64,000 bases of DNA from an uncultured Dehalococcoidia bacterium (GTDB taxonomy: Bacteria; Chloroflexota; Dehalococcoidia; Lucifugimonadales; UBA1127). Numbering within the stretch: the stretch's first letter is position 1; each line of letters starts with the position of its first letter. The position numbers were made by a program, and so were the translations under genes. This document shows positions 1,292 through 45,490 of the stretch, one piece after another. The notes beneath the pieces were generated by a model that searched no databases, was not told the DNA's origin, and was given only the letters and a program-made list of their open reading frames with translations. The DNA is taken from NCBI GenBank assembly GCA_913049785.1, contig CAJWXP010000005.1, forward strand, positions 14,527 through 78,526, in the 5' to 3' direction.

Positions 1292-2158
1292 TTGGCCACC
1301 AAGCGCGTCGGCATCATCGGCTACCCCATCCGCCACTCCGCATCACCAGCGTTTCAGCAGGCTGCCCTCGATTTCAAAGGCATCGATGCCAAGTTCGAGG
1401 CGTGGGCTGTGGAGCCGGGTACGGTCGTCGAGTGGATGGCCGAGCAGGACCGTACTGACCTCCTCGGCTTCGGCGTCACCGTGCCACACAAGCAGGAGAT
1501 CATGAAGGTGCTGGACTACGTGGACAACGATGCGAAGGCCATCGGTGCAGTGAACACCGTGGTGGTTGGCAAGGACAAGCGACTGCTCGGCTACAACACA
1601 GACGCCTACGGCTTCCTCCATGCGCTTCAGGAGGACGGTGAATTCACGCCGGCTGGGCAGCACGTCCTGGTGCTGGGCGCGGGTGGCGTGTCGCGCGCCG
1701 TCTGCACGGTGCTGCTGCGAGAGGGTGTCGCGTCACTGACGCTGGCGAACCGCACAGTCGCAAGAGCTGAGGCGCTGCTTGGCGACTTAGCCACCGGCGG
1801 TGTTCAGGTGGAGGCAATCTCATTAGAGCCGGATTCTCTCAAACAAGCTCTCGCAACAAAGAATCCGATGGCGCTCATCGTGAACTGCACATTACTAGGG
1901 ATGCTGCACGGCTCGGATGAGGAGGCGTCGCCAATACCAGGCGAACTCATTCCGTCGGGCTCCCTGGTATTCGATCTGGTGTACAACCCGGCTGAGACGC
2001 CTCTGATGAAGCTAGCTGAGGCCGCTGGTGCGAAGACCCTTGGAGGCCTGTCCATGCTGGTGTATCAAGGCACCAAGGGGTTCCAACTATGGACGGGCGA
2101 GGCAGCTCCTTTGGAAATCATGATGGCCGCCGCCAAGAAAGCTGTATGGACCAAATGA
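1292..2158 (+). CDS. aroE: shikimate dehydrogenase
   Basis: ORF 1220..2158. Motifs: GIIGYPIRHSASP, VTVPHKQ, AIGAVNTVV, GYNTDAYGF, GAGGVSRAV. The first 24 codons (MVSLSNHE...) fall in the REP-like repeat. An in-frame TTG at 1292 follows GGAGGG (1282-1287), so I prefer it as the start. Confidence 0.85.
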   Translation: MATKRVGIIGYPIRHSASPAFQQAALDFKGIDAKFEAWAVEPGTVVEWMAEQDRTDLLGFGVTVPHKQEIMKVLDYVDNDAKAIGAVNTVVVGKDKRLLGYNTDAYGFLHALQEDGEFTPAGQHVLVLGAGGVSRAVCTVLLREGVASLTLANRTVARAEALLGDLATGGVQVEAISLEPDSLKQALATKNPMALIVNCTLLGMLHGSDEEASPIPGELIPSGSLVFDLVYNPAETPLMKLAEAAGAKTLGGLSMLVYQGTKGFQLWTGEAAPLEIMMAAAKKAVWTK

Positions 2159-2159
2159 A

Positions 2160-3359
2160 GTGTTAGGCCGACTCTGGGAGGTACTCTTTGTAGCCACCAG
2201 GCTGGGGTTGACCTCCTTTGGTGGCCCCGTAGCCCATCTCGGGTATTTCCGTGCAGAGTACGTTGAACGGCGCAAATGGCTGACAGAGCAGACCTATGCT
2301 GACCTGGTAGCTCTGTGTCAGCTCCTACCGGGGCCGGCAAGCAGCCAGGTGGGCATCGGCGTCGGCATCAAGAGGGCAGGCCTTCTGGGCGGGATATTGG
2401 CCTGGCTGGGGTTCACCCTTCCTTCCGCCGTTGTCCTCATCCTCTTCACCTATGGTGTGGCTCAAGCTGGCGATGTGTCCGACGCCGCATGGCTGGGTGG
2501 CCTGAAAGTCGTGGCGGTCTCGGTGGTCGCGCTGGCGGTTTGGGGGATGGCCCGAACGCTGACGCCCGATAGGAATCGGATCACCCTGGCGATCGTGGCG
2601 GCTATCTTCGTGACGACTGTTGGTGGTGTTGGGGGCCAGGTCATCGTTATCCTCGGAGGCGGGCTCCTTGGCTGGATCTTCTTCCGACGAGGCCTGGACA
2701 ACCAGGACATAGAACGCACCGAATCCTCCATTGGGCGACGACTCGCCATAGCATCGCTGGTGGTGTTTGCAGTGTTGCTGGTCGGGTTGCCGATCATGGA
2801 GCGCTTATTCGACTCCGGGCCGCTGCAGGTCTTCGACAGTTTCTATCGTTCCGGGTCGTTGGTCTTCGGAGGTGGGCATGTAGTGTTACCCCTCCTCCAG
2901 GCAGAGACCGTCCCTACCGGCATGGTCTCCCAAGACGAGTTCATAGCCGGTTACGGAGCCGCTCAGGCGGTGCCCGGCCCTCTCTTCACCTTTGCAGCGT
3001 ACCTTGGGGGGACCGCCGAGACCTTCAATTCACCCTGGTTTGGTGGGCTTTTCGCCCTTGGCGCCATTTACCTGCCGTCGTTCCTGCTGGTAGTCGGAGT
3101 ATTGCCGTTCTGGGATGCGCTACGCTCCATGACCGGGTTCAGGAGCGTGTTGATCGGAGTGAATGCCGCCGTAGTGGGTCTGCTCCTGGCAGCGTTGTAC
3201 GACCCTGTATGGACCAGCGCTATTCATCAGCCGTCCGACTTCGCGCTAGGTCTCGGAGCGTTTGGGCTGCTGGCGTTCTGGAAACTGCCGCCGTGGATCG
3301 TTGTGGTACTGGCCGCTCTTGGAGCAGAGGGCATCGAGGCCGCAAGGAACTTCGTATGA
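2160..3359 (+). CDS. chrA: chromate transporter (ChrA family, two fused CHR halves)
   Basis: SFGGPVAHLGYFRAEYVERRKWL...LCQLLPGPASSQVG, with a second half carrying GAAQAVPGPLFTFAAYLG. Polytopic membrane protein. Confidence 0.85.
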   Translation: MLGRLWEVLFVATRLGLTSFGGPVAHLGYFRAEYVERRKWLTEQTYADLVALCQLLPGPASSQVGIGVGIKRAGLLGGILAWLGFTLPSAVVLILFTYGVAQAGDVSDAAWLGGLKVVAVSVVALAVWGMARTLTPDRNRITLAIVAAIFVTTVGGVGGQVIVILGGGLLGWIFFRRGLDNQDIERTESSIGRRLAIASLVVFAVLLVGLPIMERLFDSGPLQVFDSFYRSGSLVFGGGHVVLPLLQAETVPTGMVSQDEFIAGYGAAQAVPGPLFTFAAYLGGTAETFNSPWFGGLFALGAIYLPSFLLVVGVLPFWDALRSMTGFRSVLIGVNAAVVGLLLAALYDPVWTSAIHQPSDFALGLGAFGLLAFWKLPPWIVVVLAALGAEGIEAARNFV

Positions 3360-3383
3360 AGTCAGTTGGCCAGGACAGCCACC

Positions 3384-3971
3384 TTAGGCAATCAGCCCAA
3401 CTAGCTCTATCGTCGAGTTCACCCAGATAAATAGGCCCAGCAGAACGGTGACCACCTCGCCAATGCCTATGGGTGCATTCCGAACGGCGTTGTCTTCGCC
3501 AACGTCCCAATAGGCGTTGAGGTCACGCTGCATCCACAACACCAGGGCCAACATCAGTGCCATATCTATGGCGTCCAACGTAAGGACTATTGCCAACTCG
3601 CTCAGGCCGCTTAACACGCCAAATGCAAGCAGAAGGATCTGGACTCCCAGCGAAACCCCAACGATAACAACCAACCCGGCTGCAACCCATGGGTTCACTC
3701 TTGGGACAAGGCCTCTTCGGCGTGCCACACCTTGAATCGCACGGGCATGTTGGTAGGTGATGAGCAGGCTGTACTCAGGCGCCAGAAAGCCCAGTGAATG
3801 CCACACAGGGAAGTGCTGCTCATCCCTCTCGCTGGATAGCTGCTACCAGGTCAGATAAAACCAGTAGATGCCGTAGAACCCAAACGACGCGATCATGACA
3901 GCCGCTATCCGCTTGTTACTCAGCCGAGTCCTGGTAACTTCTTGAGCCGTACCCACGTTCGTTGTAATCAT
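3384..3971 (-). pseudogene. DUF4234-like membrane protein interrupted by an in-frame TAG (3845-3843)
   Basis: ATG at 3971-3969 with a GGTGAGGA SD gives MITTNVGTAQEVTRTRLSNKRIAAVMIASFGFYGIYWFYLTW, then TAG. The same frame continues QLSSERDEQHFPVWHSLGF... into track ORF 3384..3806. The GIYWFY..W motif is typical of DUF4234. Confidence 0.5.
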
Positions 3972-4060: not shown

Positions 4061-5269
4061 TTGATAAAATACATCACCGCAGGGGAATCGCACGGCAAGG
4101 GCCTCACCATCATCGTGGAGGGGTTCCCCACCGGGTTCCCATTGAGCGAGGACTACATTCAGGAAGACCTGGCCCGTCGACAACGAGGATACGGTCGCGG
4201 CGGTCGACAGCTCATCGAGAAGGACCGCGCGGAGTTGCTGTCGGGCGTTCGACATGGCCTCACCATGGGCTCACCTATATCCATGTTCATCCCCAACAAG
4301 GACTACGTGAACTGGGGCAAGGTGATGGCCACGGAGCCCGTTGAAGACCCGGGCAACACCGTCACTCGACTGCGCGCGGGCCACGCCGATATGCCCGGCA
4401 CCATCAAATACGGCATCAGCGATGTCCGAAACATCCTGGAGCGTTCATCAGCCCGCGAGACCGCTGCCCGTGTGGCTGCTGGAGCCGTGGCCAAACGATT
4501 CCTGCAGGAGTTCGGCATTGAAGTTCACTCCCACGTCATCAACATCGGTGGTGTCCGGTCCAAGTATGAGCACCCTGTTGACTGGGAGAAGGCCAACGCC
4601 TCCGAAGTCCACTGCATCGACCCTTTGGCCGAAGCGGAGATGATAAAGATCATCGACAAAGCCAAGGAAGACGGCGATACGATCGGCGGCGCTGTAGAAG
4701 TCGTGGCCACCAACGTTCCCATCGGCTTGGGCTCCCACGTCCACTACGAACGCAAGCTGGACGCCCGATTAGCGCTGGCGCTGATGTCCATACAAGCATG
4801 CAAGTCGGTTGCCATTGGCGAGGGTTGGGAAGCTGCCGACCTCCCGGGCTCTCAGTACCATGACACCCTTGAACCGATAGCCGAGGACGGCAAAGCCCCC
4901 GCCGGACCGTATCCCACAGCAAGCGGCCCCTGGCACCGGGCGACCAACCGCACAGGCGGCATTGAGGGCGGTATGAGCACTGGGATGCCGCTGATTGCGC
5001 GATTCACGATCAAACCCATCGCCACGCTGGCGAAGCCATTGCCCTCAGTAGACCTGGTAACGGGGAAGACCGTGCAGGCCCACTTTGAACGCTCTGACGT
5101 GTGTAACGTGCCACCTGCAGGGGTCATCGGCGAGGCCGCGGTAGCTTTCGTGCTGGCAGATGCCTTCTTGGAGAAGTTCGGCGGAGACAACATCGATGAG
5201 ACCAGCCGCAACTTCAACAGCTACCAGAAGACCATAGGCCCCAGGAGTTGGGTCGCAACAGACGGATAG
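4061..5269 (+). CDS. aroC: chorismate synthase
   Basis: ORF 4046..5269. An in-frame TTG at 4061 follows AGGAG (4050-4054) and gives the N-terminus IKYITAGESHG, typical of AroC. A TATAAT lies at 4029-4034. Confidence 0.9.
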   Translation: MIKYITAGESHGKGLTIIVEGFPTGFPLSEDYIQEDLARRQRGYGRGGRQLIEKDRAELLSGVRHGLTMGSPISMFIPNKDYVNWGKVMATEPVEDPGNTVTRLRAGHADMPGTIKYGISDVRNILERSSARETAARVAAGAVAKRFLQEFGIEVHSHVINIGGVRSKYEHPVDWEKANASEVHCIDPLAEAEMIKIIDKAKEDGDTIGGAVEVVATNVPIGLGSHVHYERKLDARLALALMSIQACKSVAIGEGWEAADLPGSQYHDTLEPIAEDGKAPAGPYPTASGPWHRATNRTGGIEGGMSTGMPLIARFTIKPIATLAKPLPSVDLVTGKTVQAHFERSDVCNVPPAGVIGEAAVAFVLADAFLEKFGGDNIDETSRNFNSYQKTIGPRSWVATDG

Positions 5270-5357
5270 TTCCTATCTTCTGCTGCCGTTTAGCGACCTC
5301 GAATGCGGTCCAAGTACATTGAAATATCCGCAGGACTGCGTGACACAAGGATGAAAA

Positions 5358-6230
5358 ATGCCGCAGACTCAGAACATCATCGGGCTGGTCTATGACTTCG
5401 ATAAGACCCTGAGCCCGAACTCCATGCAGGAAGACACGGTGCTTCCCTATTTGGGCCTTGATTCTGCCAAGTTCTGGGCGGAGACGGATCGCTTAGTGGC
5501 TGAGGATTCCTACGAAGCGGAGCTCGCATGGATGCAGCTGTTATTGGAAAAAGAGGAGTTCAGGAATCTCTCCAACCAGGACCTGCAACACATGGGGCTG
5601 AAGCTCAAATACTATGCGGGTGTGCCAGAGATCTTTAAGCAGTTGGAAGAGGTGTTGGACAGGCCTGCTTACAGAGAGTATGGCGTCACCATTGAGCACT
5701 ACATCATCACATCCGGCCTCAGGGAGATCCTGGAGGGCAGCAACCTTCGCCCTTACGTGAAGTCCATCTTCGGCTCGGAGATCGCCGAGGACTCACAAGG
5801 CAAGCTAGGCTTCCCCAAACGCGCCATCAGCCACACGCAGAAGACCCAGTACCTCTTTCGCATTAACAAGGGCTATCTGGACCTCCAGACGGACGTCAAC
5901 GACCACGTACCGCGTGAGGACCACCGCATCCCGTTCCAGAATATGCTCTACATTGGCGATGGCCCCACAGACGTGCCCTGCTTCGCGGTGATGAGTCAGC
6001 AGGAGGGGCACACCCTGGCGGTCTACGACCCCGCTGACAACAACTCCTTTGCCAAGTGCATGCAACTCCGGAAGGCCAAGCGCGTCGAGGAGATTGCTGA
6101 GGCCAACTACCAGAAGGGCACACACCTGTGGCGATTGCTTGAGTACGTCATCACGGAGATCGCTGATAGCATCGTGCAGCGTCGACGAGATAGCCAGGAA
6201 GCATCCATCATCGCGGCACCCGGCCACTAG
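5358..6230 (+). CDS. HAD-superfamily hydrolase-like protein
   Basis: DxDxT-type motif YDFDKTL near the N-terminus and a late GDGPTDVP motif. The specific substrate is unknown. Confidence 0.6.
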   Translation: MPQTQNIIGLVYDFDKTLSPNSMQEDTVLPYLGLDSAKFWAETDRLVAEDSYEAELAWMQLLLEKEEFRNLSNQDLQHMGLKLKYYAGVPEIFKQLEEVLDRPAYREYGVTIEHYIITSGLREILEGSNLRPYVKSIFGSEIAEDSQGKLGFPKRAISHTQKTQYLFRINKGYLDLQTDVNDHVPREDHRIPFQNMLYIGDGPTDVPCFAVMSQQEGHTLAVYDPADNNSFAKCMQLRKAKRVEEIAEANYQKGTHLWRLLEYVITEIADSIVQRRRDSQEASIIAAPGH

Positions 6231-7682: not shown

Positions 7683-9461
7683 ATGCGAAATAGTATCCTG
7701 ACCTCAAAACGAGCGTGGTTGCTCATGGCCGCACTGGTAATGGTATTAGTGCTGGCAGCTGCCTGCTCTAGCGACGGTGATGAAGATGACGGTGGCAGCA
7801 CTGCTGCACCTGCGCCTACATCGGTGCCCGCCGCTCCCGCACCCACATCGGCTGCAGCAGCCCCAGCACCTGCAGCAGCCCCAGCACCTACGGCGGCACC
7901 AATCCAGGCACCTGTAGCAACTGAGCCTGTGGTCAACCGCGTGGTGATCGGGAACCCCGCTCCCAGCACTGAAGGAAACAACCCGAACATCGAGTTGGGT
8001 CCGCTGACCACCTTCCAGATCGGGCCTACCTTTGAGTACCTGATCGGATATGACCCGGCGACGGGAGACCTGGTACCCCAACTGGCCACTGAGTGGAGCG
8101 TAGAGCCGGATGGTATTTCCACTCGCTTTAAGCTGCGTGAAGGCGTCCAGTTCCATGATGGGAGCGAGTTCTCTGCAGCGGACGTAGTCTTTACTCATGC
8201 TCAAATTGTCAGCGACGACTCCCTCCACGCCATCTCCCGTAGATACAAACTGGCAACCATCGAGGTCATCAACGACTTTGAGATCGTCTTTAAGCTTTCG
8301 CGGGCAAACGCAGAGGCATTGAAGCAGATTTCTGAGCAGGTCGGCGGCCTAGAGATTGAAAGCTCCGCTGGCTTTGCTGCAAACGGGCGCCCCACCCTGA
8401 CCGGGAGTCCACTTGCAGGCACCGGCGCTTATCAGTTCAAGGAACGGGTCCAGGGTCAGAATGTCGTCTTTGAAGCTGTACCTTATGACCACTGGCGCTA
8501 CACGCCTGACTTCCCGGAGCTTGAATATCGATGGATGGGAGAGGCCTCCACACGGCTGGCCGCACTCCTGACAGACGAGATTCATCTCACCCAGCTGCCT
8601 GAGGACAGCATCCCCCAGGCTGAGTCTGAAGGGATGAAACTCATCAGCGGCACCTTGTCAGGCCAACGCGTGTTCCTGAGCTTTAAAGGCGCCTACTTGG
8701 ATAGCAAAAGTTCATGCGGATACGTGCACTGTGACAGCCCTTTCTTGGACAGGAACGTCCGTCAGGCGCTGAACCGTGCAATCGATCGCGATGAATTGAA
8801 CCAAGCCTTCTTTGGTGGTAAAGGCCAAAAGATGGTTATGAACCACATCCCCCCCACAGCCAGTTACTGGAACACGGACTGGGACCGAGACTTTGATGCG
8901 AACTGGGGATTCGACCCCGCTGCTGCCCGGACTCTGCTGGCAGAATCCGGTTACAACAGTGACAACCCTCTGGAAGTGGGAGTTGAGATCACCACCCACG
9001 CCCAGTACGGTCAATCAGCAGATGTGCTGGAGATCATCGCTGGCTACTGGAGCGATATCGACGTCAAAGCCAACCTCCTGACAATCGATACAGCGGCAAA
9101 CAGGTCCAACACCCGCGCATTCAACTACAAGGACCACATCGGCTTCGCCGCTACTGCGTCCTTTGACATCCAGGGGTGGCGCGTCTACAACTCCCACGTA
9201 GTACCACGCGGTGGCTCGCTGGAGTTGATCAACACAGGCGCACTGATCGACCAGCTTCAGGCTGAGATGGATGCTGCGAAGCAGAATGTCCTGCTCCGCG
9301 AGATAGGTGACCTGGCATTCGGCGAGTACATGGGTATCTACCTGTACTGGATTCCGGCTCAGCTGGTCATCAACCCTGAGTTCGTAGCGTCATACAACTT
9401 CCCGGGTTCTCTCTCCGCAATATGGACCCACTACGAACTGCTCAAGGCTGTGAAGAAGTAA
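7683..9461 (+). CDS. ABC transporter substrate-binding lipoprotein (family 5, peptide/nickel type)
   Basis: ATG at 7683 gives MRNSILTSKRAWLLMAALVMVLVLAAAC, a lipobox. An Ala/Pro-rich linker follows, then an SBP_bac_5-like body (FKLREGVQFHDGSEF..., GTGAYQFKE). Confidence 0.85.
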   Translation: MRNSILTSKRAWLLMAALVMVLVLAAACSSDGDEDDGGSTAAPAPTSVPAAPAPTSAAAAPAPAAAPAPTAAPIQAPVATEPVVNRVVIGNPAPSTEGNNPNIELGPLTTFQIGPTFEYLIGYDPATGDLVPQLATEWSVEPDGISTRFKLREGVQFHDGSEFSAADVVFTHAQIVSDDSLHAISRRYKLATIEVINDFEIVFKLSRANAEALKQISEQVGGLEIESSAGFAANGRPTLTGSPLAGTGAYQFKERVQGQNVVFEAVPYDHWRYTPDFPELEYRWMGEASTRLAALLTDEIHLTQLPEDSIPQAESEGMKLISGTLSGQRVFLSFKGAYLDSKSSCGYVHCDSPFLDRNVRQALNRAIDRDELNQAFFGGKGQKMVMNHIPPTASYWNTDWDRDFDANWGFDPAAARTLLAESGYNSDNPLEVGVEITTHAQYGQSADVLEIIAGYWSDIDVKANLLTIDTAANRSNTRAFNYKDHIGFAATASFDIQGWRVYNSHVVPRGGSLELINTGALIDQLQAEMDAAKQNVLLREIGDLAFGEYMGIYLYWIPAQLVINPEFVASYNFPGSLSAIWTHYELLKAVKK

Positions 9462-34286: not shown

Positions 34287-35254
34287 CCTACGAGGGATTG
34301 CAGACTTTTCACATCGTTGACGGCTGTCACCTGTGCGTCCGGGCATATCCGGCGAATCAAGCCGGAGAGTACCTTCCCAGGGCCGATCTCGTAGAACTGC
34401 GTTACTCCAGCGTCCCAGAGATAGGCCATGGAGCGTCTCCACTGCACGCACCCACACATCTGGTGAAGCAGTTCTTCCTTGATCTCGTCTCCACTGGTGA
34501 TGGGGTTGGCGTCGCAGTTGGCAATGATCGGAACGCTAGGAGTGTTGAAGTGGGTTTCGTTCATCGCCTTGGTCATCCCAGCGACTGCAGGCTTCATAAA
34601 GTCTGTGTGGAATGCGCCACTGACCTGTAGCGTGATGAGTCTTTTGGCTCCGCGGGCGCTTGCCAAGTCCATGGCGCGGGCCAGCGTGATCTTGTCACCG
34701 GCAATGACAACCTGGTCTTCAGCGTTGACGTTGGAGATGTATGCTCCGGTCTCTCTGCATATCTCTTCAATTGTCAGTTCATCCAAACCAAGAACGGCAG
34801 CCATGCCACCCTGATGGGTTTGCGACGTCTCATGCATCAACCGGCCTCGCTCCTGCACCAACCGCACCGCATCAGTGATGCTTAGTACGCCGGTTGCAGC
34901 CAGGGCAGAGTATTCTCCCAAACTATGCCCTGCCGCAAAGTCAGGGAGAGGCATGACTTCTGGTCCTGCGGCCTCCTGTACAGCGCTCAGCGTAGCTAAG
35001 CTAGCTGTAAGGATTGCGGGTTGTGCATTGATAGTGAGGTTCAATTCTTCTATCGGGCCTTCAAACATCAACTCTGTGAGCGGCCTACCAAGGGCCTTGT
35101 CTGCTTCGTCAAAGACTCGACGCGCAACGGGGGATGCTTCATAAAGATCTTTTCCCATACCAACATGTTGCGAACCTTGGCCGGGAAACACGTACGCAAC
35201 CTTTGATGATGTGACATCCGGTGATGTGACATCTCCTAAGGTGGAATTCTTCAT
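34283..35254 (-). CDS. fabD: malonyl CoA-ACP transacylase
   Basis: FPGQGSQ and [13 protein letters not shown] at 35254 follows AGGAG. Confidence 0.9.
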
Positions 35255-35339
35255 CAGAAACTCCTGTTTCCTGCTTAAGGGCCTGAGGGCCCATATATTC
35301 ACTTTGGTAAGGTGGCTGAATAGGGTACCAGGAAGAGGT

Positions 35340-35537
35340 TTAGCCTCTCTCCTGACTTATTGGCACAGAGATAACTTCACGGTCCTTGTAATACCCACAG
35401 ATAGGGCATATACGGTGGGGAAGCTTGGGGCTGTGACAGTGTGAGCAATAAGAAATCCCACGCCCACTCATAACAAAATGAGAAGCACGGGATCGTTGCT
35501 TCGATTTGGATAGTTGCTTTTTAGGTTGTGCGCCCAC
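35340..35537 (-). CDS. rpmF: 50S ribosomal protein L32
   Basis: PKKQLSKSKQRSRASH... followed by a CxxC...CxxC zinc ribbon. Confidence 0.9.
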   Translation of the reverse strand: MGAQPKKQLSKSKQRSRASHFVMSGRGISYCSHCHSPKLPHRICPICGYYKDREVISVPISQERG

Positions 35538-35549
35538 TGTTGGCCCCTT

Positions 35550-36095
35550 CTAGGACCCCTTATCTGTGGACGGAAGAAGTTCTAACAAACGTTCCCAGCG
35601 GGGATCTACTGTCCTTACTTCGCAGTGACACTCAGCTTCGTTGCGGTTGATACCGCATTCTGGACAGATACCCGCACAATCTGGCTTGCAGAGAGGTTTC
35701 ATTGGCAACTGGGATATGATGTTCTGCCTCAAGGCCTCTCTTGTATCTAGCACATTTGTTGGGCTTATTCGGAAAGCCTCTTCTTCCAATACTGGGGCAG
35801 CTATCGCAGCTCCAGTGGTAAGTTCCACAGCAGGGTAAAATTGTTCGTTTATCTCTGTGTTCAAGGGAGAGTCAAAACCCTCTAGACATCGGCTGCACTG
35901 GGATGAGACTTCTGCTTTGAGACGTCCCTTAACCCAGATTCCTATGTCTGTTCGGGTAAACTTCAGCCATCCCTCCAAACGTGTTGCTTCAATATCGTCC
36001 AAGGCGACATTTGCCTCCTGGACCTGGTGCTGCCGTACGGAGCCTATGGGCTCTTGTAGCATTTGTGCGACGTTGTACTGCATATGTCCTTCCAT
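35550..36095 (-). CDS. yceD: YceD/DUF177 family protein
   Basis: Classic position upstream of rpmF. C-terminal KPDCAGICPECGINRNEAECHC. The start is ATG at 36095 or 36083. The upstream part of track ORF 35550..36344 covers the promoter region. Confidence 0.75.
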   Translation of the reverse strand: MEGHMQYNVAQMLQEPIGSVRQHQVQEANVALDDIEATRLEGWLKFTRTDIGIWVKGRLKAEVSSQCSRCLEGFDSPLNTEINEQFYPAVELTTGAAIAAPVLEEEAFRISPTNVLDTREALRQNIISQLPMKPLCKPDCAGICPECGINRNEAECHCEVRTVDPRWERLLELLPSTDKGS

Positions 36096-36116
36096 ATCGT
36101 CGACACACCGAAAGGC

Positions 36117-36146
36117 ATTGTAGTCACCTCGATCTCCTGGTGTCAA
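36117..36146 (-). promoter_or_regulatory. sigma-70-type promoter for the yceD-rpmF-fabD-nusB-acpP cluster
   Basis: On the minus strand: TTGACA (36146-36141), an 18-nt spacer, TACAAT (36122-36117). It lies about 20 nt upstream of the yceD start. Confidence 0.45.
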
Positions 36147-36295
36147 GCGTGATACACACAAATTTTGATACCTTAATATCAACCTAGTAGCCGCTAAACA
36201 CCCCGCGGAGGACAGAACGATGCAGCGAGACTCCGGAGATGCTGGAGTTTGTGACGACTCTTTGGTGCGTGTGACATCAAATCCAGGCTGTTGAT

Positions 36296-37024
36296 TCATA
36301 CCCCTAGTGAAGGTGTGGTCAGGGCGCGCTCTGAGGCTCCCCATCGATCGGCGTGGAGAGCCGCCTTGTCTTGGAGCATGCGCTGATATTCTGGCTCCTG
36401 GATCTTCCCGGTGGTCATGATGAAAGCGTCTTCATTGTTATCGCTGTAATACCGTTTCCTGGAGCCCACGATCTCAAACCCGTATTTCTTGTAGAGGGTC
36501 TGGGCCAGGGTGTTGCTGATCCTGACCTCAAGCGTTACCACATCGGCGTTGCGAAGAATTGCGAGCTCTATGCACCCGATGAGCAGGAGCTCCCCGATAC
36601 CCCTGCCTTGGTAGAACTCCCGCACCGCAATGGCAGTGACGTGGGCCTCGTCCGCCATGAACCACATGCCGACAAACCCCGGGATGACATCCCAACGGAT
36701 CGCCTGCGGGTCATCGCGCCTGGACCGAAGGCCTATCCTTGGCCAGACTCCTTGCAGCAATCGCTTCAACATGGAGTCGTTAGGGGTTATGTCAACAGAT
36801 GGTTCTGGTTGTTCAGCCTCTGCGATTTCTTCCGTGGGCACGTAACACACCAGGTATCGCGCCAGTCGGTTACTGAGCTCTTTGCGAAAAGGTGTGGGTG
36901 GCCAAGTGGTAGGGAAAGCCTCCATCTCGATCTCTGCGACGGCCTTCGAGTCATCCGGCAGCATCGGTCGGAGAGAATAGGCCATGTACTCGGTTGCCAC
37001 CGGTTCTTGTTCAACAGCGCTCAT
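36296..37024 (-). CDS. rimI: GNAT N-acetyltransferase, ribosomal-protein-alanine acetyltransferase (RimI)-like
   Basis: ATG at 37024 after GAAGGA. EIEMEAFPTTWP, QGRGIGELLL, YKKYGF. Confidence 0.7.
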   Translation of the reverse strand: MSAVEQEPVATEYMAYSLRPMLPDDSKAVAEIEMEAFPTTWPPTPFRKELSNRLARYLVCYVPTEEIAEAEQPEPSVDITPNDSMLKRLLQGVWPRIGLRSRRDDPQAIRWDVIPGFVGMWFMADEAHVTAIAVREFYQGRGIGELLLIGCIELAILRNADVVTLEVRISNTLAQTLYKKYGFEIVGSRKRYYSDNNEDAFIMTTGKIQEPEYQRMLQDKAALHADRWGASERALTTPSLGV

Positions 37025-40325: not shown

Positions 40326-40910
40326 TTAGTTCTGTGGCCCGATTTCGCCAATGTCCGGCACACGCTGCTGCACCGCTCGCATCACCAGGTACTCCAACGC
40401 CTGTGGGTCGAAGCCCAATGATACCGCACGGTCAGAGTCCTGCTTTGCCTGTTCGTCATCGCCCAGCAACGTGTTGGCCATTGCTCGCAGCGCGTGCGCC
40501 GACGCCGAGTTCGCATCGATGCTCAGCGCCTGCTCAAGATCGGGCATCGCCTGGTCAGGCTGTCGTAGCTCGATGTAGGAGGCGGCGCGGTTGTTGTACG
40601 CGTCCAGGTGCTTAGGGTCCAGTCGAATCGTCTCCGTGTAATCGTCGATGGCCTGCAATGCCTGATGCAAGCTGGTGTGCGCCATGCCGCGGTTGTAGTA
40701 AGCCTCCGCGGAGTCCGGGCGCAGTCGGATGACCTGGTTGAAGTCGCGCATCGCTTCCAGCGGCTCCACCCTCTGGCCAAAAGCCACACCGCGACGGTGA
40801 TACGCGTCCGCGTCGTTCGGGTTCGACTCGATGGCCTGGTTCAGCTCCTCCATGAGGGCATCAAGCTGGGCCAGCGCCTCTACCTGTTCGTCCTGGGGTT
40901 CAGTGGTCAT
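40326..40910 (-). CDS. tetratricopeptide repeat protein
   Basis: Four to five tandem 34-aa TPR units (AxAYxxRGxAxxxLxxxxxAIxDYxxAIxLDP pattern). Confidence 0.8.
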   Translation of the reverse strand: MTTEPQDEQVEALAQLDALMEELNQAIESNPNDADAYHRRGVAFGQRVEPLEAMRDFNQVIRLRPDSAEAYYNRGMAHTSLHQALQAIDDYTETIRLDPKHLDAYNNRAASYIELRQPDQAMPDLEQALSIDANSASAHALRAMANTLLGDDEQAKQDSDRAVSLGFDPQALEYLVMRAVQQRVPDIGEIGPQN

Positions 40911-40984
40911 TGGGGTTTAACCCCTCCTGCTATGGTGTCGTGCTATATAATAAGGCTGGCTCAGTATAGCAGGAGGCCGATTTG

Positions 40985-42045
40985 TTACTCAGGCAGCACA
41001 GCGCTTAGTATCTCCCCAAGACCTAATCTCTGTCCCCCATACATCCCAAAACTAGCTGAAAACAAACACGTAAAATTAGGAGACTCGTTATCCAGGAAAG
41101 TAACTATTTCATGAAAGTCGATTAATACTCTAACTCTGCTCTTCTCGAGGTCTAGGTGCTCGATATTGACAAGGGGCGGGGTCGTTGCTCTGTTAAATCC
41201 CAACCTTGCTATTGCTTCACTGATTTCATGAAACTTTTGCTTCTCTTCGTTAGCTCTTACGGGGGTGTCGAACCTCGTTTCAGGTCTAACTAACAAGTCA
41301 GCTTTGTTAAAAACTAACACAACAGGGTGTTTGCGCACCTGGGATTCGCGATCCCTATTTACATCTATGAAATGTTGTCACGCTGCTCTGATTGCCGCAG
41401 TAGTTTGATTCACATAATCTAATTGTAGTTGTTGCGGCTGTAAGTAAGCCCCTATGTCAACTACGAAAATAATTGCCTCCCTGTCCAATACCCATCTAAA
41501 AAATCATTGTTATGAAACCACTCTTGGCCACTGACGAATGTTTCTGAGTGTTCTCCCGGGAAGTCCCCAAATTCGATCTTATACGTACGCTCTGAAGGAA
41601 ACTTTCCTCTTTTTACATCCGCACGAAATGCAAACATGTCCTGATCCTTTGTCGGTCCTAGTGAACGTCCACTGCTAAGCAGAGATAAACCTCGATTGAC
41701 AGCTTCGATAGTCTGGCTACCACGGAGTTGAATATCGACGCCCACTCGCTTTGCAAACATCTCACGGAACAAAGAAATAAGGAGGGTTGTTTTACCTGAC
41801 CTTGGAAATCCTAAAATTGCTACATTATATGCAATCGGTAAATCAAAAATTATCGCGCGCTTTGAAGCCGCAGTAGCCCAAATCATTCCTATAACGCCGA
41901 CGATGACTCCGCTGATCAAGACAATCCGCGAAACTAAGCGACTCGTTTCATCAGACCACGCAATGTCCACAGCTAACGCAATGACTATGGCTAATAACGC
42001 CAATGTCATCCAAAATAAAGACATCAGTCTCGGTGAATTTCTCAA
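40985..42045 (-). pseudogene. 2-TM-anchored Ras/Arf-like P-loop GTPase, reading frame disrupted (-1 shift at 41497-41503, in-frame TGA at 41380-41378)
   Basis: Track ORF 41461..42045 carries two TM helices, G1 GFPRSGKTT and G3 DFPGE. Track ORF 40985..41338 carries G4 NKAD and FSAS. The 120-nt gap translates in the -1 frame as RWVLDREAIIFVVDIGAYLQPQQLQLDYVNQTTAAIRAA-TGA-QHFIDVNRDRESQVRKHPVVLVFNKAD, which joins the two ORFs. AT-rich. Confidence 0.6.
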
Positions 42046-42488
42046 CGTATTGCAACTCTCAAGTCAAACGTCTGCTGAACCCTCCGTGTGAGAAAAATAA
42101 TGATTGGGGTAAGAACAAATACTGCAATCTGGAACCCTATATCTGGAGTTCCATCACGCGCACCGCTGTAGACGATAATAACAAACAAAACGGTAAAGAT
42201 GAGAGCAATCAGTTGGTAAAAGAACGCCCATGACCCAGCCTCAAATTGCTTATCTTCATTATCCAACTGGACTTCTCGACGAAATATACTGATTTCCACA
42301 AAAAAGGCGACCAATGCCATGCTGATCGCCAGTTCAGGAGCAGAAAATGTTGCCAGACTAAAGCTACCATCTGCCATTAGACGAATGACTCCTCCTATGA
42401 CAAATGGAAACAATGGAAAGACAATATGAGCTATCAGCCAATACCTAGCCTTGGGATTGTTGGGGGTATTCGTCAGATTCGTTCTCAT
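42042..42488 (-). CDS. small 4-TM membrane protein (no family recognised)
   Basis: Track ORF 42042..42533, with an internal ATG at 42488 (MRTNLTNT). Four hydrophobic helices. The stop TGA overlaps the TTG start of the GTPase gene (TTGA). AT-rich. Confidence 0.5.
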   Translation of the reverse strand: MRTNLTNTPNNPKARYWLIAHIVFPLFPFVIGGVIRLMADGSFSLATFSAPELAISMALVAFFVEISIFRREVQLDNEDKQFEAGSWAFFYQLIALIFTVLFVIIVYSGARDGTPDIGFQIAVFVLTPIIIFLTRRVQQTFDLRVAIR

Positions 42489-42580
42489 CGCTGAAGAGAG
42501 AGTGTAACTGTAATATATTGTTTTGAAATGCAACTAATTGTTGATAATACCAGAGTTTTATTATCGTTCCATTTAATTAT

Positions 42581-45490
42581 TTACTTTGACTCGTCCCCTA
42601 ACTGCTGAGCCAGGAACTCCGCCAGGTGCATCGTTTTGACGCCGGTGCCGTGCTCCACCTGCTGATGGCAGGACACGCCTGTCGTCACGATGGTCGCGCC
42701 GGGGTTGTTGCGCACTGCGGGGAACAGCACCCGCTCGCCGATGGTCATCGAGACGTCGTAGTGCTCCTTCTCGAACCCGAAGGCTCCCGCCATGCCGCAG
42801 CACCCAGCGTCAGGGGTCTCCACCTCTACACCTGGCACCATCTTCAGCAACGCTACGGAGGCATCTATGCCGATCGCCGCCTTCTGGTGGCAGTGGCCGT
42901 GGAAGATGACCTTGCCTTCGTGGGGTTGCAGGTCGAGGTTCAGGTCGCCCTCATTTGCCAGCTTCGCCAGGAACTCGTCGAGCAGGAAGGTCTGGCTGGC
43001 GACCGTCGATGCTTTGGAATCGCCCGGCAGGAGATCGGGGTACTCGTCGCGCAGGGTCAGCAGACATGACGGCTCGGTTCCAATGATGGGTATGCCCGCC
43101 TGGGCGTAGGGGTAGAACAGGTCCACGTTGTTGCGCGCGTTCTCCTTAACCGGGTCCATCATACCCTTGGACATCATGGTGCGACCGCAGCACCACCGGG
43201 GCGCAGTCTCCACGCTGAAGCCCAACTTTTCCAGTACCTTGGTAGCCGCGATGCCCACTTCCGGGTTGTTCGCTTCCATGAACGTGTCATTGAACAGGAT
43301 AACGCGCCCTCGCGTGCGAGGCGAAGCGTTCGCGACCTGGCGTTGGTGCTTCTTGAACCAACTCGAGAAGGTCTCTGTGGCAAAGGCGGGCAATTTCCGT
43401 TTGGGATGGATGCCGATAAGCCCCTGCAGCATGCCAGTTCCGGGCAGCTTCATGGCCAGGTTCAGCACCGGTGCCAACCTGTTGCCGATGGGGTTCAGCT
43501 TAAAGACCTTGCCGAAGAGTTTGTCCCGCAGTGAGTAACCGTGCTCCTTGTGGTAGTGGCCAAGGAACTCGTACTTCAGCTTGGCCATGTCCACGCTGGA
43601 CGGGCACTCAATCTTGCAGCCCTTGCACGCCAGGCACAGGTCAAGCACCTCGTGGAGTCGTTCGCCGGTGAACTCTTCCTGTGGCAGCACGCCGGAGAAG
43701 ACGTTGCGAAGGGCGTTCGCTCTACCGCGCGTACTGCTCTCTTCATCTCGCGTTGCCATGAACGATGGACACATCGTCCCACCGATGGTCTGTCGGCACG
43801 CTCCCTGGCCGTTGCACATCTCCAGGTGCTCTGCGATGCCGCCGTCCTTGGAGAAATCGAAGTACGTATCCAACTTCATGGGTTTCCACTGCGGGTCGAA
43901 GCGCAGGTTCTCGACCAGTGGTGGGCAATCGATGATCTTGCCGGGGTTCATGATGCCCTTGGGATCGAAGACGTGTTTGAACTCACGGAACGATGCGTAG
44001 AGCTTGGGGCCGAACATTTTCTCCGTGAACACGCCCCGCACGATGCCGTCGCCGTGCTCGCCGCTCAATGACCCGCCGAACTCCAGCACCAGGTCAGACA
44101 CCCGTTCCGCGATGCGTACCATGCGGTCGAGGCCCTCTTGTTGCTTTATGTCTACCAGTGGTCTGATGTGCAGGCAACCGACGCTGGCGTGGCCGTAGTA
44201 CGCCGCCGTGGTCTTCTCGTCCCTGACCAGCTCGTCGAACCGCTTGAAGTACTCCGGCAATCGCTCCGGCGGCACAGCGGTGTCCTCCACGAACGGTAGG
44301 GGTTTGGCAGTGCCCTCCACAGACATGATCAGCCCCAGGCCATCGCGTCGGACAGCCCAGATGATGGATTGCTGCCGAGGATCGGTCACCTTCAGGGTGA
44401 AGTAGCCCAGGCCCTGCTGGTCGATGATCTTGGTGATGCGTTCGAGTCCCGCGGCAGCTTCCTCCGGGGTATCGCCGGATGCTTCAACCAGCAGCATCGC
44501 CGCCGGGTCGCCTTCGACGAAGTCCATGCGCTTCGACATTCCAGGGTGCTTGCGACCCTGCTTCACGATTGTATCGTCAATCATCTCGATGGCCGATGCG
44601 CCGGAGTCGAGTAGTGCGACCGTGGCCTCGAACGACTCCATGATGGAATGGAAGTGGATGACCGCCAGCGCCGCCGCCTTGGGACGAGGCACCATCCGTA
44701 CTTTGGCTCGAGTGAACGTGACCAGCGTGCCCTCCGAGCCTACGACGACCTTGGCCATGTTGGTGGGGTCTCGCAGCACTTCGTCCAGGTTGTAGCCGCT
44801 CACTCGACGTTGGATCTTGGGGTAGCGCAGGTCTATCTCCGCCTGCTGCTCTTCGGCGATACGTCGCACATCGCGATATATCTGGCCTTCCAGGCTCTGG
44901 AGAGCCAACTTGGCTTCAAGCTCGTTCGATGTCAGGTCTTTGAAGGAGGTCACGCTGCCGTCTGCAAGCACGACCTCAAGCTCCAGTACGTGATCCAGCG
45001 TCTTGCCATACACAATGGAGCGCGCGCCGCAGGAGTTGTTGCCAATGGCGCCGCCGATGTTGCCTCGATTGGTTGTTGACGGGTCTGGCGCGAACTTGAG
45101 ACCGTGGGGCGCACCCAACGCGCTCAGCTGGTCCAGCACGATGCCGGGTTCAACCCAGGCCCAACCCTCTTCACTGTTCATCTCAGAGAGCTGGTTCATG
45201 TGTTTGGAGAAATCCATGACCACCGCATGGTTCACCGTCTGCCCCGCCAGCCCGGTGCCGCCGCCCCTCGGGAGCACGGGGATTCCTTCCGATGCCGCAA
45301 AGGTAACGGTGTTGACCACGTCTTCAACGTCCTTGGGGAACACCACGCCGATGGGATCCATCTGGAATATTGAAGCGTCCGTTGCGTAGAGCGCGCGAGT
45401 CATCTGGTCGAACTTCACTTCGCCCTTCAGTCGCTTCTTCAGTTCGTTCCCTATTTCCGTGGTGTCTTTGGTAACCTGCTTGGTGGTCAT
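42581..45490 (-). CDS. FAD-linked oxidase fused to an Fe-S/CCG-domain module (GlcD-GlcF / D-lactate dehydrogenase-like)
   Basis: ATG at 45490 after AGGAG. N-terminal FAD_binding_4-like region (PRGGGTGLAGQ), central 4Fe-4S CxxCxxC motifs (CLACKGCKIECP), and C-terminal cysteine-rich CCG repeats. Confidence 0.85.
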   Translation of the reverse strand: MTTKQVTKDTTEIGNELKKRLKGEVKFDQMTRALYATDASIFQMDPIGVVFPKDVEDVVNTVTFAASEGIPVLPRGGGTGLAGQTVNHAVVMDFSKHMNQLSEMNSEEGWAWVEPGIVLDQLSALGAPHGLKFAPDPSTTNRGNIGGAIGNNSCGARSIVYGKTLDHVLELEVVLADGSVTSFKDLTSNELEAKLALQSLEGQIYRDVRRIAEEQQAEIDLRYPKIQRRVSGYNLDEVLRDPTNMAKVVVGSEGTLVTFTRAKVRMVPRPKAAALAVIHFHSIMESFEATVALLDSGASAIEMIDDTIVKQGRKHPGMSKRMDFVEGDPAAMLLVEASGDTPEEAAAGLERITKIIDQQGLGYFTLKVTDPRQQSIIWAVRRDGLGLIMSVEGTAKPLPFVEDTAVPPERLPEYFKRFDELVRDEKTTAAYYGHASVGCLHIRPLVDIKQQEGLDRMVRIAERVSDLVLEFGGSLSGEHGDGIVRGVFTEKMFGPKLYASFREFKHVFDPKGIMNPGKIIDCPPLVENLRFDPQWKPMKLDTYFDFSKDGGIAEHLEMCNGQGACRQTIGGTMCPSFMATRDEESSTRGRANALRNVFSGVLPQEEFTGERLHEVLDLCLACKGCKIECPSSVDMAKLKYEFLGHYHKEHGYSLRDKLFGKVFKLNPIGNRLAPVLNLAMKLPGTGMLQGLIGIHPKRKLPAFATETFSSWFKKHQRQVANASPRTRGRVILFNDTFMEANNPEVGIAATKVLEKLGFSVETAPRWCCGRTMMSKGMMDPVKENARNNVDLFYPYAQAGIPIIGTEPSCLLTLRDEYPDLLPGDSKASTVASQTFLLDEFLAKLANEGDLNLDLQPHEGKVIFHGHCHQKAAIGIDASVALLKMVPGVEVETPDAGCCGMAGAFGFEKEHYDVSMTIGERVLFPAVRNNPGATIVTTGVSCHQQVEHGTGVKTMHLAEFLAQQLGDESK

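Follow-up and report, generated by a model that had tools for sequence, protein, structure and literature searches.

A decayed, horizontally acquired cassette of a four-helix membrane protein and a GTPase in a SAR202 genome, and a probable conflict-type role for its intact relatives

In a 64,000-nucleotide (nt) stretch of DNA from an uncultured Dehalococcoidia bacterium (contig CAJWXP010000005.1; the whole of this stretch is referred to below as the window), the genes for an FAD/Fe-S oxidase and a TPR-like protein are separated by an AT-rich insert of about 1.62 kb, which carries on the minus strand a gene for a small protein with four transmembrane (TM) helices, called here the 4TM protein, and a second gene for a membrane-anchored GTPase. 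A first-pass annotation, made from the sequence alone, had taken these two genes to be an acquired module of conflict or defence type. That the insert was acquired from elsewhere is borne out by the analysis described here, while the idea of a working module in this particular genome has to be given up, as the GTPase gene contains both a frameshift and a nonsense mutation, and both are fixed. The best-supported account of the function is that a two-gene cassette, acquired horizontally, has decayed here, while its intact family probably plays a defence- or conflict-type role; we would put the probability of this account at roughly 0.6.

A foreign insert with a GTPase pseudogene

The host of the insert is a member of the SAR202 cluster (Chloroflexota, Dehalococcoidia), and a fragment of the GTPase is entered at NCBI under the name 'hypothetical protein [SAR202 cluster bacterium]'. 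The abrupt change to AT-rich composition reported in the first-pass annotation is confirmed by computation: in 300-nt windows between 40900 and 42699 the G+C content (GC) is 0.40-0.46, with values of 0.57-0.65 in the flanks on both sides, and the lowest-GC bin of the whole 64 kb is that at 41-42 kb. For the insert itself (40964-42580) the GC is 0.428 as against 0.584 for the rest; with all other windows of 1616 nt as the reference, z is -7.8. Its tetranucleotide distance to the background is 0.59, others having 0.23 +/- 0.03 with a maximum of 0.37, so that it is also the strongest outlier by this measure. The composition of the insert is, in short, un-ameliorated.

Relatives in which the same locus could be compared were found by scanning metagenome contigs with the C-terminal 299 amino acids (aa) of the oxidase, which yielded three contigs (L029, L030 and L031) with 81-87% amino-acid identity. 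In each of these the oxidase gene is followed by the TPR gene after a spacer of just 10-72 nt (a luciferase-like monooxygenase gene being next in line in L029 and L030), and neither cassette gene is present, even in part, at this locus in any of the three. Because the oxidase and TPR genes are adjacent without the cassette in three relatives, the 1.6-kb stretch is a lineage-specific insertion, and the cassette is of foreign origin and was acquired horizontally. The insertion is younger than the split from these 81-87% relatives and, since the present population all carries both of the lesions described below, older than the diversification of that population.

As to the exact extent of the insert, the first-pass annotation had placed it at 40985-42580. 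Its left end, next to the oxidase, has been kept, and lies at or inside the last oxidase codons (~42580); the right end has been refined to ~40964, about 20 nt past the GTPase stop, because positions 40911-40963 of the window have their homologue in the 72-nt spacer of L029. The oxidase ends in LGDESK here, compared with LVD, LGIANR and LGDS (each immediately before the stop) in the empty-site relatives L029-L031, and it seems that on insertion the gene's own final codons and stop were exchanged for new ones (42581-42600). The distance of 47 nt given earlier between the oxidase stop and the first cassette gene is correct if measured to the TTG start of the 4TM gene. Neither end of the insert shows a target-site duplication, terminal inverted repeats, a tRNA or an Rfam element, and there are no mobility genes within it. 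Coordinates of the main features are collected in Table 1.

Table 1. Coordinates of the insert, its genes, motifs and lesions, and the genes flanking it (positions are those of the window).
Feature	Position	Strand	Basis
AT-rich foreign insert, ~1.62 kb	40964-42580	minus	composition outlier; absent from L029, L030 and L031
Four-TM protein gene, 148 aa, open reading frame (ORF) intact	42042-42488 (ATG)	minus	ORF list, hydrophobicity
Membrane-anchored GTPase pseudogene, repaired product 353 aa	40985-42045	minus	three-frame translation, alignment
Start/stop overlap TTGA of 4TM and GTPase genes	42042-42045	minus	sequence
G1/P-loop GFPRSGKTT	41785-41811	minus	G, G and K invariant in family alignments
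G3/Walker B GDFPGE	41551-41568	minus	D and G invariant
Frameshift lesion, T6 for family-required T7 (D-F-F-R-W)	T6 at 41503-41498, heptamer 41497-41503	minus	alignment
In-frame TGA for near-invariant Trp of RAAWQH (alignment column W223)	41378-41380	minus	alignment
G4 NKAD, 3' of both lesions	41297-41308	minus	K and D invariant in family
FAD/Fe-S oxidase, native flank, 978 aa	42581-45517	minus	ORF; orthologues of 81-87% identity in L029-L031
TPR-like protein, native flank, 194 aa	40326-40910	minus	ORF; orthologues of 76-80% identity directly after oxidase in L029-L031

What is left of the GTPase gene is divided between two ORFs. ORF A (41461-42045, 194 aa) encodes two TM helices together with G1 and G3 and terminates at a TAG, while ORF B (40985-41338, 117 aa) contains NKAD and FSASF. 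All the motifs that had been proposed, in the order G1, G3, G4 and FSAS, could be located, and FSASF aligns with a conserved (T/S)SSF of the family. The first-pass annotation had already recognised that conceptual repair would be needed, and the joining of ORF A to ORF B in fact needs two repairs, namely one shift of frame within a run of T and the passing of one in-frame TGA. Past the T run, frame 0 continues as ...NNDFLDGYWTGRQLFS and then stops; in the other frame the sequence is FFRWVLDREAIIFVVD, in agreement with the family pattern FFKWV..DA.IFV.D and its invariant Trp. As both lesions fall on invariant or near-invariant positions of the family, the ancestral sequence was GAT TTT TTT AGA TGG (with T7) at the first site and TGG at RAAWQH. 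The gene thus has no uninterrupted frame over G1 to G5, and, to judge from the sequence, at most a 194-aa fragment would be made, comprising the TM hairpin and G1-G3 without G4 and G5. It starts, moreover, at a TTG, as opposed to the ATG found in 18 of 22 relatives. For annotation this means that the three ORFs of the insert (111/148-163, 187/194 and 117 aa) amount to one intact gene and one pseudogene.

Independent assemblies bear directly on the reality of these lesions. A metagenome contig from the Joint Genome Institute (JGI), L004, is collinear with the window over the insert and into the TPR gene, and has both lesions; it differs from the window at 13 of ~1616 insert positions (0.8%), and within the cassette there are 6 non-synonymous and 4 synonymous differences, numbers that are too small for a test and fit relaxed constraint or neutrality. 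Five further contigs of the same species, from two NCBI metagenome-assembled genomes (MAGs), Tara, Logan and another JGI sample, are 99.9% identical to the window without gaps. Both lesions occur in L004, L024, L025, L027 and L028, that is, in every other assembly that covers the sites, some of which have private single-nucleotide polymorphisms (SNPs). The GTPase is therefore a fixed pseudogene, and the module is non-functional in this genome.

The obvious objection, that the contig might be chimeric or the lesions mere homopolymer errors, could draw on the fact that the frameshift sits in a homopolymer. It is refuted by the recurrence of the same junctions and lesions across five other, independent assemblies (two NCBI MAGs, Tara and two from JGI), which excludes both sequencing error and chimerism, and the nonsense change is in any case a substitution; the chance of an artefact is practically nil. 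A quite different objection would be that the gene is recoded rather than broken, a -1 slip in the T run and readthrough of the TGA still yielding the GTPase. Read in the zero frame, the T run does give a slippery heptamer of the classical X_XXY_YYZ type, T_TTT_TTA (41503-41497, within GA[T TTT TTA]), and the population stably keeps both lesions. A slip at this heptamer would give D-F-L-R-W instead of the ancestral D-F-F-R-W, and the TGA that follows 120 nt further on still precedes G4, for which reason full-length GTPase is probably not made. Recoding would require two independent events; the TGA takes the place of a Trp encoded by TGG in relatives; neither feature occurs in any homologue, intact ORFs being the rule; no stimulatory structure came to light, although none was looked for; and the SNPs between strains, few as they are, fit neutrality. 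Recoding is accordingly very improbable.

The cassette and its proteins in other genomes

Contexts were gathered for ~28 homologous loci from genomes and metagenomes. When all ORFs within ~6 kb were compared, all against all, for 22 loci including that of the window, only the GTPase gene (22/22) and the 4TM gene (20/22) proved to be shared, there being no conserved third gene among these loci (the TPR gene of the window is native). In each of six loci added later a small gene, with a product of 94-173 aa, again stands upstream of the GTPase gene. The two genes overlap by 4 nt at start and stop in 20 of the 22 loci, the overlap being ATGA in 18 and TTGA in the window, and translational coupling is therefore a trait of the family. 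The earlier description of two minus-strand genes, 4TM then GTPase, meeting in a TTGA, thus agrees with the ORFs, the hydrophobic segments and the overlap now established, and the pair is indeed a conserved, translationally coupled unit.

The module is found in a scattered set of hosts. Outside the SAR202 cluster these include Nitrospirota, Anaerolineae, Aminicenantales, Phycisphaerae, Acidobacteriota, Pyrinomonadaceae, Terracidiphilus and Saprospiraceae; Amphritea, Pseudomonas, Ectopseudomonas and Sedimenticola; many gammaproteobacteria that are Beggiatoa-like or sulfur symbionts, with several Beggiatoa-like Thiotrichales and the symbionts Thiosymbion and Kentron; and, among the archaea, Bathyarchaeia (L008) and another archaeon (L001). 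This last locus (JGI 3300031898 Ga0315312_1000031), an archaeal contig with PolD, Sec61-beta and DUF2070, holds the closest intact homologue of the window GTPase, at 47% identity. Together with a loop motif that the window 4TM protein shares only with the two archaeal copies (see below), this hints at transfer of the cassette between domains.

In 23 of 24 loci the pair is more AT-rich than its flanks, by 8.7 GC points on average (mean -8.7), and 5 of ~25 copies are decayed. In the window the GTPase is broken and the ORF of the 4TM gene is intact; in L020 the GTPase has a frameshift; in L022 the GTPase is shattered and the 4TM gene missing; in L021 the 4TM gene is missing; and in L011 the 4TM gene is truncated at its 5' end. 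Since one genome or another has lost either partner while keeping its mate, it would seem that neither protein is constitutively toxic by itself. To these may perhaps be added L115, where the cassette (7720-8942) lies immediately 3' of ftsZ, at the end of the dcw cell-division cluster, and where the upstream partner of only 94 aa may be another truncated 4TM protein.

The 4TM protein of the window contains four hydrophobic segments, and, if the alternative TTG start at 42533 is used (42042-42533), would have 163 aa rather than 148. It aligns with the upstream partners of 14 other loci at 19-35% identity, and three motifs are conserved: TM1 has W..H..FPL.PF..G.IR, TM2 has TF..LA.S.GLL..FVNQSL, and the C-terminus has QRSFKL(R/K), variants of which follow the pattern Q(R/Q)(S/T)F.L(R/K). 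The window protein departs from the family in having EIS in place of NQS and 8-12 residues fewer in the TM3-TM4 region. A loop motif, LDN(K/E)DKQ, is seen only in the window protein and in two archaeal copies (L001 and L008). An exhaustive profile search of 1.84e9 representative proteins found 270 clusters at E <= 1e-3, of which 161 also pass E <= 1e-10; almost all are stand-alone proteins of 140-165 aa, and in ten indexed homologues there is neither a Pfam domain nor a descriptive name. One exception to the stand-alone rule is of some interest: in a Thiotrichaceae MAG (JAABRD010000068; L017, 674-1921) an N-terminal PNP_UDP_1 domain of ~270 aa (55 bits) is fused to the 4TM protein, an architecture represented once, by a 415-aa protein, among the 270 clusters. 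An AlphaFold2 (AF2) model of an intact member, P0065, is a helical bundle with a predicted local distance difference test score (pLDDT) of 88; Foldseek finds no match for its fold in the PDB at E < 0.1 (best E 0.14), and a sequence-profile search of the PDB likewise gave nothing significant (best E 0.046).

For the GTPase, classification had to rely on the repaired 353-aa protein, which matches PF19993 (DO-GTPase2) with 37.0 bits over residues 75-284 and PF19975 (DO-GTPase1) with 32.4 bits, the gathering cutoff being 27 in both cases. A search with this protein returned 62 protein clusters, all 29-47% identical to it except for one fragment (P0001, which is short and 98% identical). Most have a length of ~290-410 aa and extend over both lesion sites; P0001 is one of six fragments of 194-245 aa, and for most of the 62 a match to PF19993 is precomputed. 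The repaired protein could be aligned over its full length with 28 homologues (29-47% identity). The residue following DxxG is E in the window protein and in the majority of the subfamily, its place being taken in several members by K, R, H, D or A.

Structural comparison was made with an AF2 model of P0002, the closest intact homologue (pLDDT 88, predicted template-modelling score 0.84), in which an N-terminal helical hairpin is followed by a G domain. Foldseek matches in the PDB are G-alpha-s, EF-Tu, RF3 and Arl/Ras/Rab proteins, with E from 1e-6 to 1e-4, 11-17% identity and TM-scores of 0.3-0.6; the best match in the PDB by sequence is SR-beta (E = 2.8e-4), and covers the TM segment and P-loop only. 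With SR-beta, Arf/Arl, G-alpha and EF-Tu the protein thus has in common the generic TRAFAC G-domain fold, and with SR-beta also the arrangement of an N-terminal TM segment followed by a G domain, but these similarities are weak and no model of a housekeeping family matches. The description 'Ras/Arf-like' used in the first-pass annotation is consequently too loose, and the protein is better called a TRAFAC GTPase without a close solved relative.

Several other assignments were considered and rejected. No well-characterised housekeeping GTPase family scores above its NCBIfam or Pfam cutoff: NCBIfam scores for Era, Der, Obg, FeoB, SRP/SR, HypB/UreG/CobW and others are far too low (16 bits against a cutoff of 280 for Obg, for instance), and Pfam MMR_HSR1 reaches 19.9 against 21.9. 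Nor is the cassette inherited vertically as a housekeeping pair, because it is missing at the same locus in close relatives. Pfam matches to G-alpha (PF00503, E = 7.6e-4), Phage_holin_2 (4.4e-3) and NnrS (4.3e-3) are likewise far below cutoff and were taken as noise or generic G-domain similarity; the first of these is precomputed for only 2 of the 62 homologues, and the other two do not recur.

Possible roles of the intact cassette

The family to which the G domain is assigned provides the natural starting point for a discussion of function. DO-GTPase/GAP1 conflict systems were defined by Kaur, Burroughs, Iyer & Aravind (2020, eLife 9:e52696; PMC7159879), who described the DO-GTPases as a new family of TRAFAC GTPases with a Walker B Glu, often present in two copies; two paralogous GTPase genes occur in 38% of the systems and are not obligatory. 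Zinc ribbons are present in 60% of the published DO-GTPases and N-terminal TM segments in 13%, one GTPase of the GAP1-N2 systems being fused to four N-terminal TM helices, and predicted conflict systems are the only setting in which the DO-GTPase2 family is known (PMC7159879). Their partners are GAP1 (GAP1-N/M/C, encoded downstream of the GTPase or fused to it), plus a GASH or FNIII protein, and variable effectors such as a PNPase, TIR, calcineurin or the pore-forming SLATT (PMC7159879).

The cassette resembles these systems in the family of its G domain, in its membrane tether and in its sporadic, mobile distribution in bacteria and a few archaea, and there is a further parallel between the PNPase effector found there and the PNP_UDP_1 domain fused to one 4TM protein here, apart from which there are no variable effectors. 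It differs from them in having two genes, rather than being ternary or multi-component, and in its constant, novel 4TM partner. Since GAP1, GASH/FNIII and a second GTPase are all missing, and the Glu is inconsistent, the cassette has not been filed as a published DO-GTPase system: the G domain belongs in the Pfam DO-GTPase family and the cassette lies outside the published system type. The cassette family is best described as a dyad that lacks GAP1 and has a new partner, the same throughout; no description of such a dyad, or of a defence system based on a TM-GTPase, was found in a search of the literature or in PMC7159879.

A defence or conflict role is favoured because of this Pfam family, the patchy spread across domains, the AT-richness, the frequency of decay, and the presence of defence and mobile elements near some of the loci. 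The last of these points can be illustrated by a number of cases. In L011 a complete PD-T4-4 system (1594-3526; A 477 bits, B 207 bits) lies 222 nt downstream of the cassette, in L014 there is a complete Septu system (4484-6087; PtuA 490 bits, PtuB 80 bits), and in L003 (199-5161 and 10616-12439) an AriAB-like (PARIS-like) ATPase scoring 204 bits is found beside the end of a Mu-like prophage. A PycTM-like gene is nearby in L112, and a type ISP restriction enzyme stands beside the cassette in L116 (1-1825). HigBA is adjacent in L020 and L021, abutting the pair in the former. In the complete genome of a cultured organism, Ectopseudomonas toyotomiensis (CP070505.1; L109, 10001-16328), an intact pair is situated at the edge of an islet of ~6 kb, which lies between the genes for an MscS channel and a hydrolase and contains a phage-type integrase, a repressor of the Arc family and small ORFan genes. 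The pair itself occupies 10001-11301 of L109 (about 3,768,598-3,769,898 of CP070505.1); another intact pair is that of Amphritea balenae (NZ_RQXV01000007; L019, 7222-8834).

All this said, several results weigh against a defence role. By a plain count over the ~28 loci, made without a matched background, a recognised defence system lies within a few kb in only ~5, and at most of the others the neighbours are housekeeping or unannotated genes (SHMT, tRNA synthetases, ftsZ, ribosomal protein genes). Neither cassette protein matches a system model in PADLOC-DB v2.0.0: for the GTPase there are only matches limited to the P-loop (mad8, E = 1.8e-4 to 3.2e-4), and for the 4TM protein nothing below E = 0.007 (the best match, to PycTM, has E = 0.0071 and is given by 1 of 15 members). 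No matches to the module were found in IMG/VR, the INPHARED phages or PLSDB. GAP1 is absent from the all-against-all comparison of 22 loci and from nine Pfam-annotated neighbourhoods, the genes immediately downstream of homologous cassettes having unrelated Pfam matches or none; GASH and FNIII are absent from the same comparison and neighbourhoods, and from the 25 most frequent of the 136 Pfam families that occur in 130 neighbours; each locus has one GTPase only, any duplicates being fragments of broken genes; and the Walker B Glu typical of DO-GTPases is variable in this subfamily. The 4TM protein resembles no known pore or channel in fold or sequence. The original suggestion of a conflict or defence module therefore survives in part, in that the DO-GTPase2 assignment and the surroundings of some loci speak for it, while the lack of a PADLOC match and the figure of ~5 in 28 do not.

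Were the defence reading correct, an intact cassette would supply a four-helix protein of ~150 aa and a GTPase of ~330-350 aa tethered by one or two N-terminal helices, and the overlapping start and stop would ensure that both were made in fixed proportion. The two would presumably assemble in the membrane through the hairpin of the GTPase and the 4TM bundle, in which case the intramembrane His, Asn-Gln-Ser and Arg residues of the 4TM protein and its basic C-terminal tail would be a candidate interface or conduit. As to the division of labour we infer that the G domain would act as a nucleotide-dependent switch or sensor and the 4TM protein as the membrane effector, or else as a partner that anchors an effector. 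A trigger, whether phage or some other invader, would shift the nucleotide state, whereupon the 4TM protein might open or oligomerise and membrane integrity collapse; in the case of the PNP fusion the attached nucleotide-degrading enzyme might instead be activated or released. Either way the outcome would be an abortive-infection or conflict-type response. In its most specific form, which is possible but distinctly tentative, the proposal is that the intact family is a minimal immune or conflict system of bacteria and archaea, in which a G protein of DO-GTPase lineage gates, or is gated by, the 4TM protein, so that the cell is killed or arrested or an effector is deployed, without GAP1 or any known accessory, the SAR202 copy being a laterally acquired fossil.

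It is helpful to set this proposal beside known systems of broadly similar design. The Rex module of phage lambda also has two genes, RexA and RexB, and RexB, a protein of ~144 aa with four TM segments, is believed to depolarise the membrane once its cytoplasmic sensor partner has activated it. By analogy, the logic of a membrane protein and its sensor partner would be that proposed for the cassette; but there is no similarity in sequence or fold, RexA is no GTPase, the order of the two genes is reversed, and Rex is encoded by a prophage, whereas the cassette was not found in the phage collections. PycTM of Pycsar, the 2TM and 4TM effectors of CBASS, and SLATT are comparable in being small terminal effectors with several TM segments, but the models for these do not match the 4TM family, and no cyclase or other generator of a nucleotide signal is present.

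Two other explanations of the intact family deserve to be weighed. The cassette might be a selfish addiction element of toxin-antitoxin (TA) type, consisting of a small membrane toxin and a GTPase, one of which would restrain the other, with no dedicated anti-phage role, and spreading and decaying as TA modules do; a tightly overlapping two-gene unit, patchy distribution, AT-rich composition and frequent decay are all what one might look for in such an element, as are the proximity of HigBA at two loci and the solitary insertions among housekeeping genes. What makes this unlikely is that the window retains its 4TM ORF without a GTPase, L021 its GTPase without a 4TM protein, and L011 a 4TM gene that is truncated: the partners are separately losable, and therefore a poor fit to a strict pair of toxin and antidote. 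There is also no match to any TA family, although it should be added that TA and defence roles are not mutually exclusive.

Alternatively, the cassette might be an accessory physiological device of the membrane, such as a FeoB-like regulated transporter or channel, or an SR-beta-like factor for insertion or signalling, acquired for some niche and subsequently lost here. In FeoB, a single large polypeptide encoded in a conserved operon, the GTPase and a polytopic membrane part are physically joined, and the cassette would share with it this coupling of a GTPase to a polytopic membrane partner. The best PDB sequence match being to SR-beta, itself a TM-anchored GTPase, would accord with a role of this sort, the conserved intramembrane polar residues of the 4TM protein (H, N-Q-S and R) would suit a conduit, and the many metabolic and housekeeping neighbours, together with the absence from phage and plasmid collections, point the same way. 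Pfam and NCBIfam scans, on the other hand, gave no match to FeoB, and the cassette has two genes and is sporadic and mobile. No metabolic or transport neighbour is conserved, the family is extremely rare (270 clusters in 1.84e9) and scattered across domains, and its Pfam conflict-system family, the fusion to a PNP_UDP effector and the defence systems adjacent at several loci fit badly with such a device, which we regard as improbable.

If the defence reading holds, the 4TM family, with its ~270 clusters and no relative in Pfam or the PDB, adds to the stock of candidate effectors. DO-GTPase systems have so far been computational predictions of multi-component character, and a two-gene version would offer the simplest entry for experimental tests; intact copies from cultured Ectopseudomonas or Amphritea would be a convenient source for these, the SAR202 locus being a fossil. 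The interest of the latter is mainly evolutionary: it presents a clean, datable insertion between conserved genes, the empty site being kept in relatives, and a cassette that was then inactivated by two point lesions, now fixed in oceanic populations.

Junction and neighbouring sequence

A second, milder dip in GC (~0.49) is seen at 35000-36350 of the window, in the region that is annotated in two identical contigs, L024 and L025, as YceD and ribosomal protein L32; by its appearance this is native housekeeping DNA and not an insert.

At the junction between the insert and the TPR gene there is a perfect 11-bp inverted repeat (40923-40976, minus strand), with arms CCTCCTGCTAT and ATAGCAGGAGG and a loop of 32 nt, by which the Shine-Dalgarno sequence of the native TPR gene is paired with an anti-Shine-Dalgarno sequence lying where the insert has its right end. 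Its RNA fold has an energy of -21.7 kcal/mol (z = -2.15). Because the left arm is missing in the empty-site relative L029, translation of the TPR gene may have been changed by the insertion.

The TPR gene (40326-40910) differs from its counterpart in L004 (1667-2173) at 39 of ~500 positions, mostly in the 3' half. As this divergence far exceeds that of the cassette (0.8%), it suggests either that recombination has had a breakpoint within the TPR gene or that the segment bearing the cassette has recently swept.

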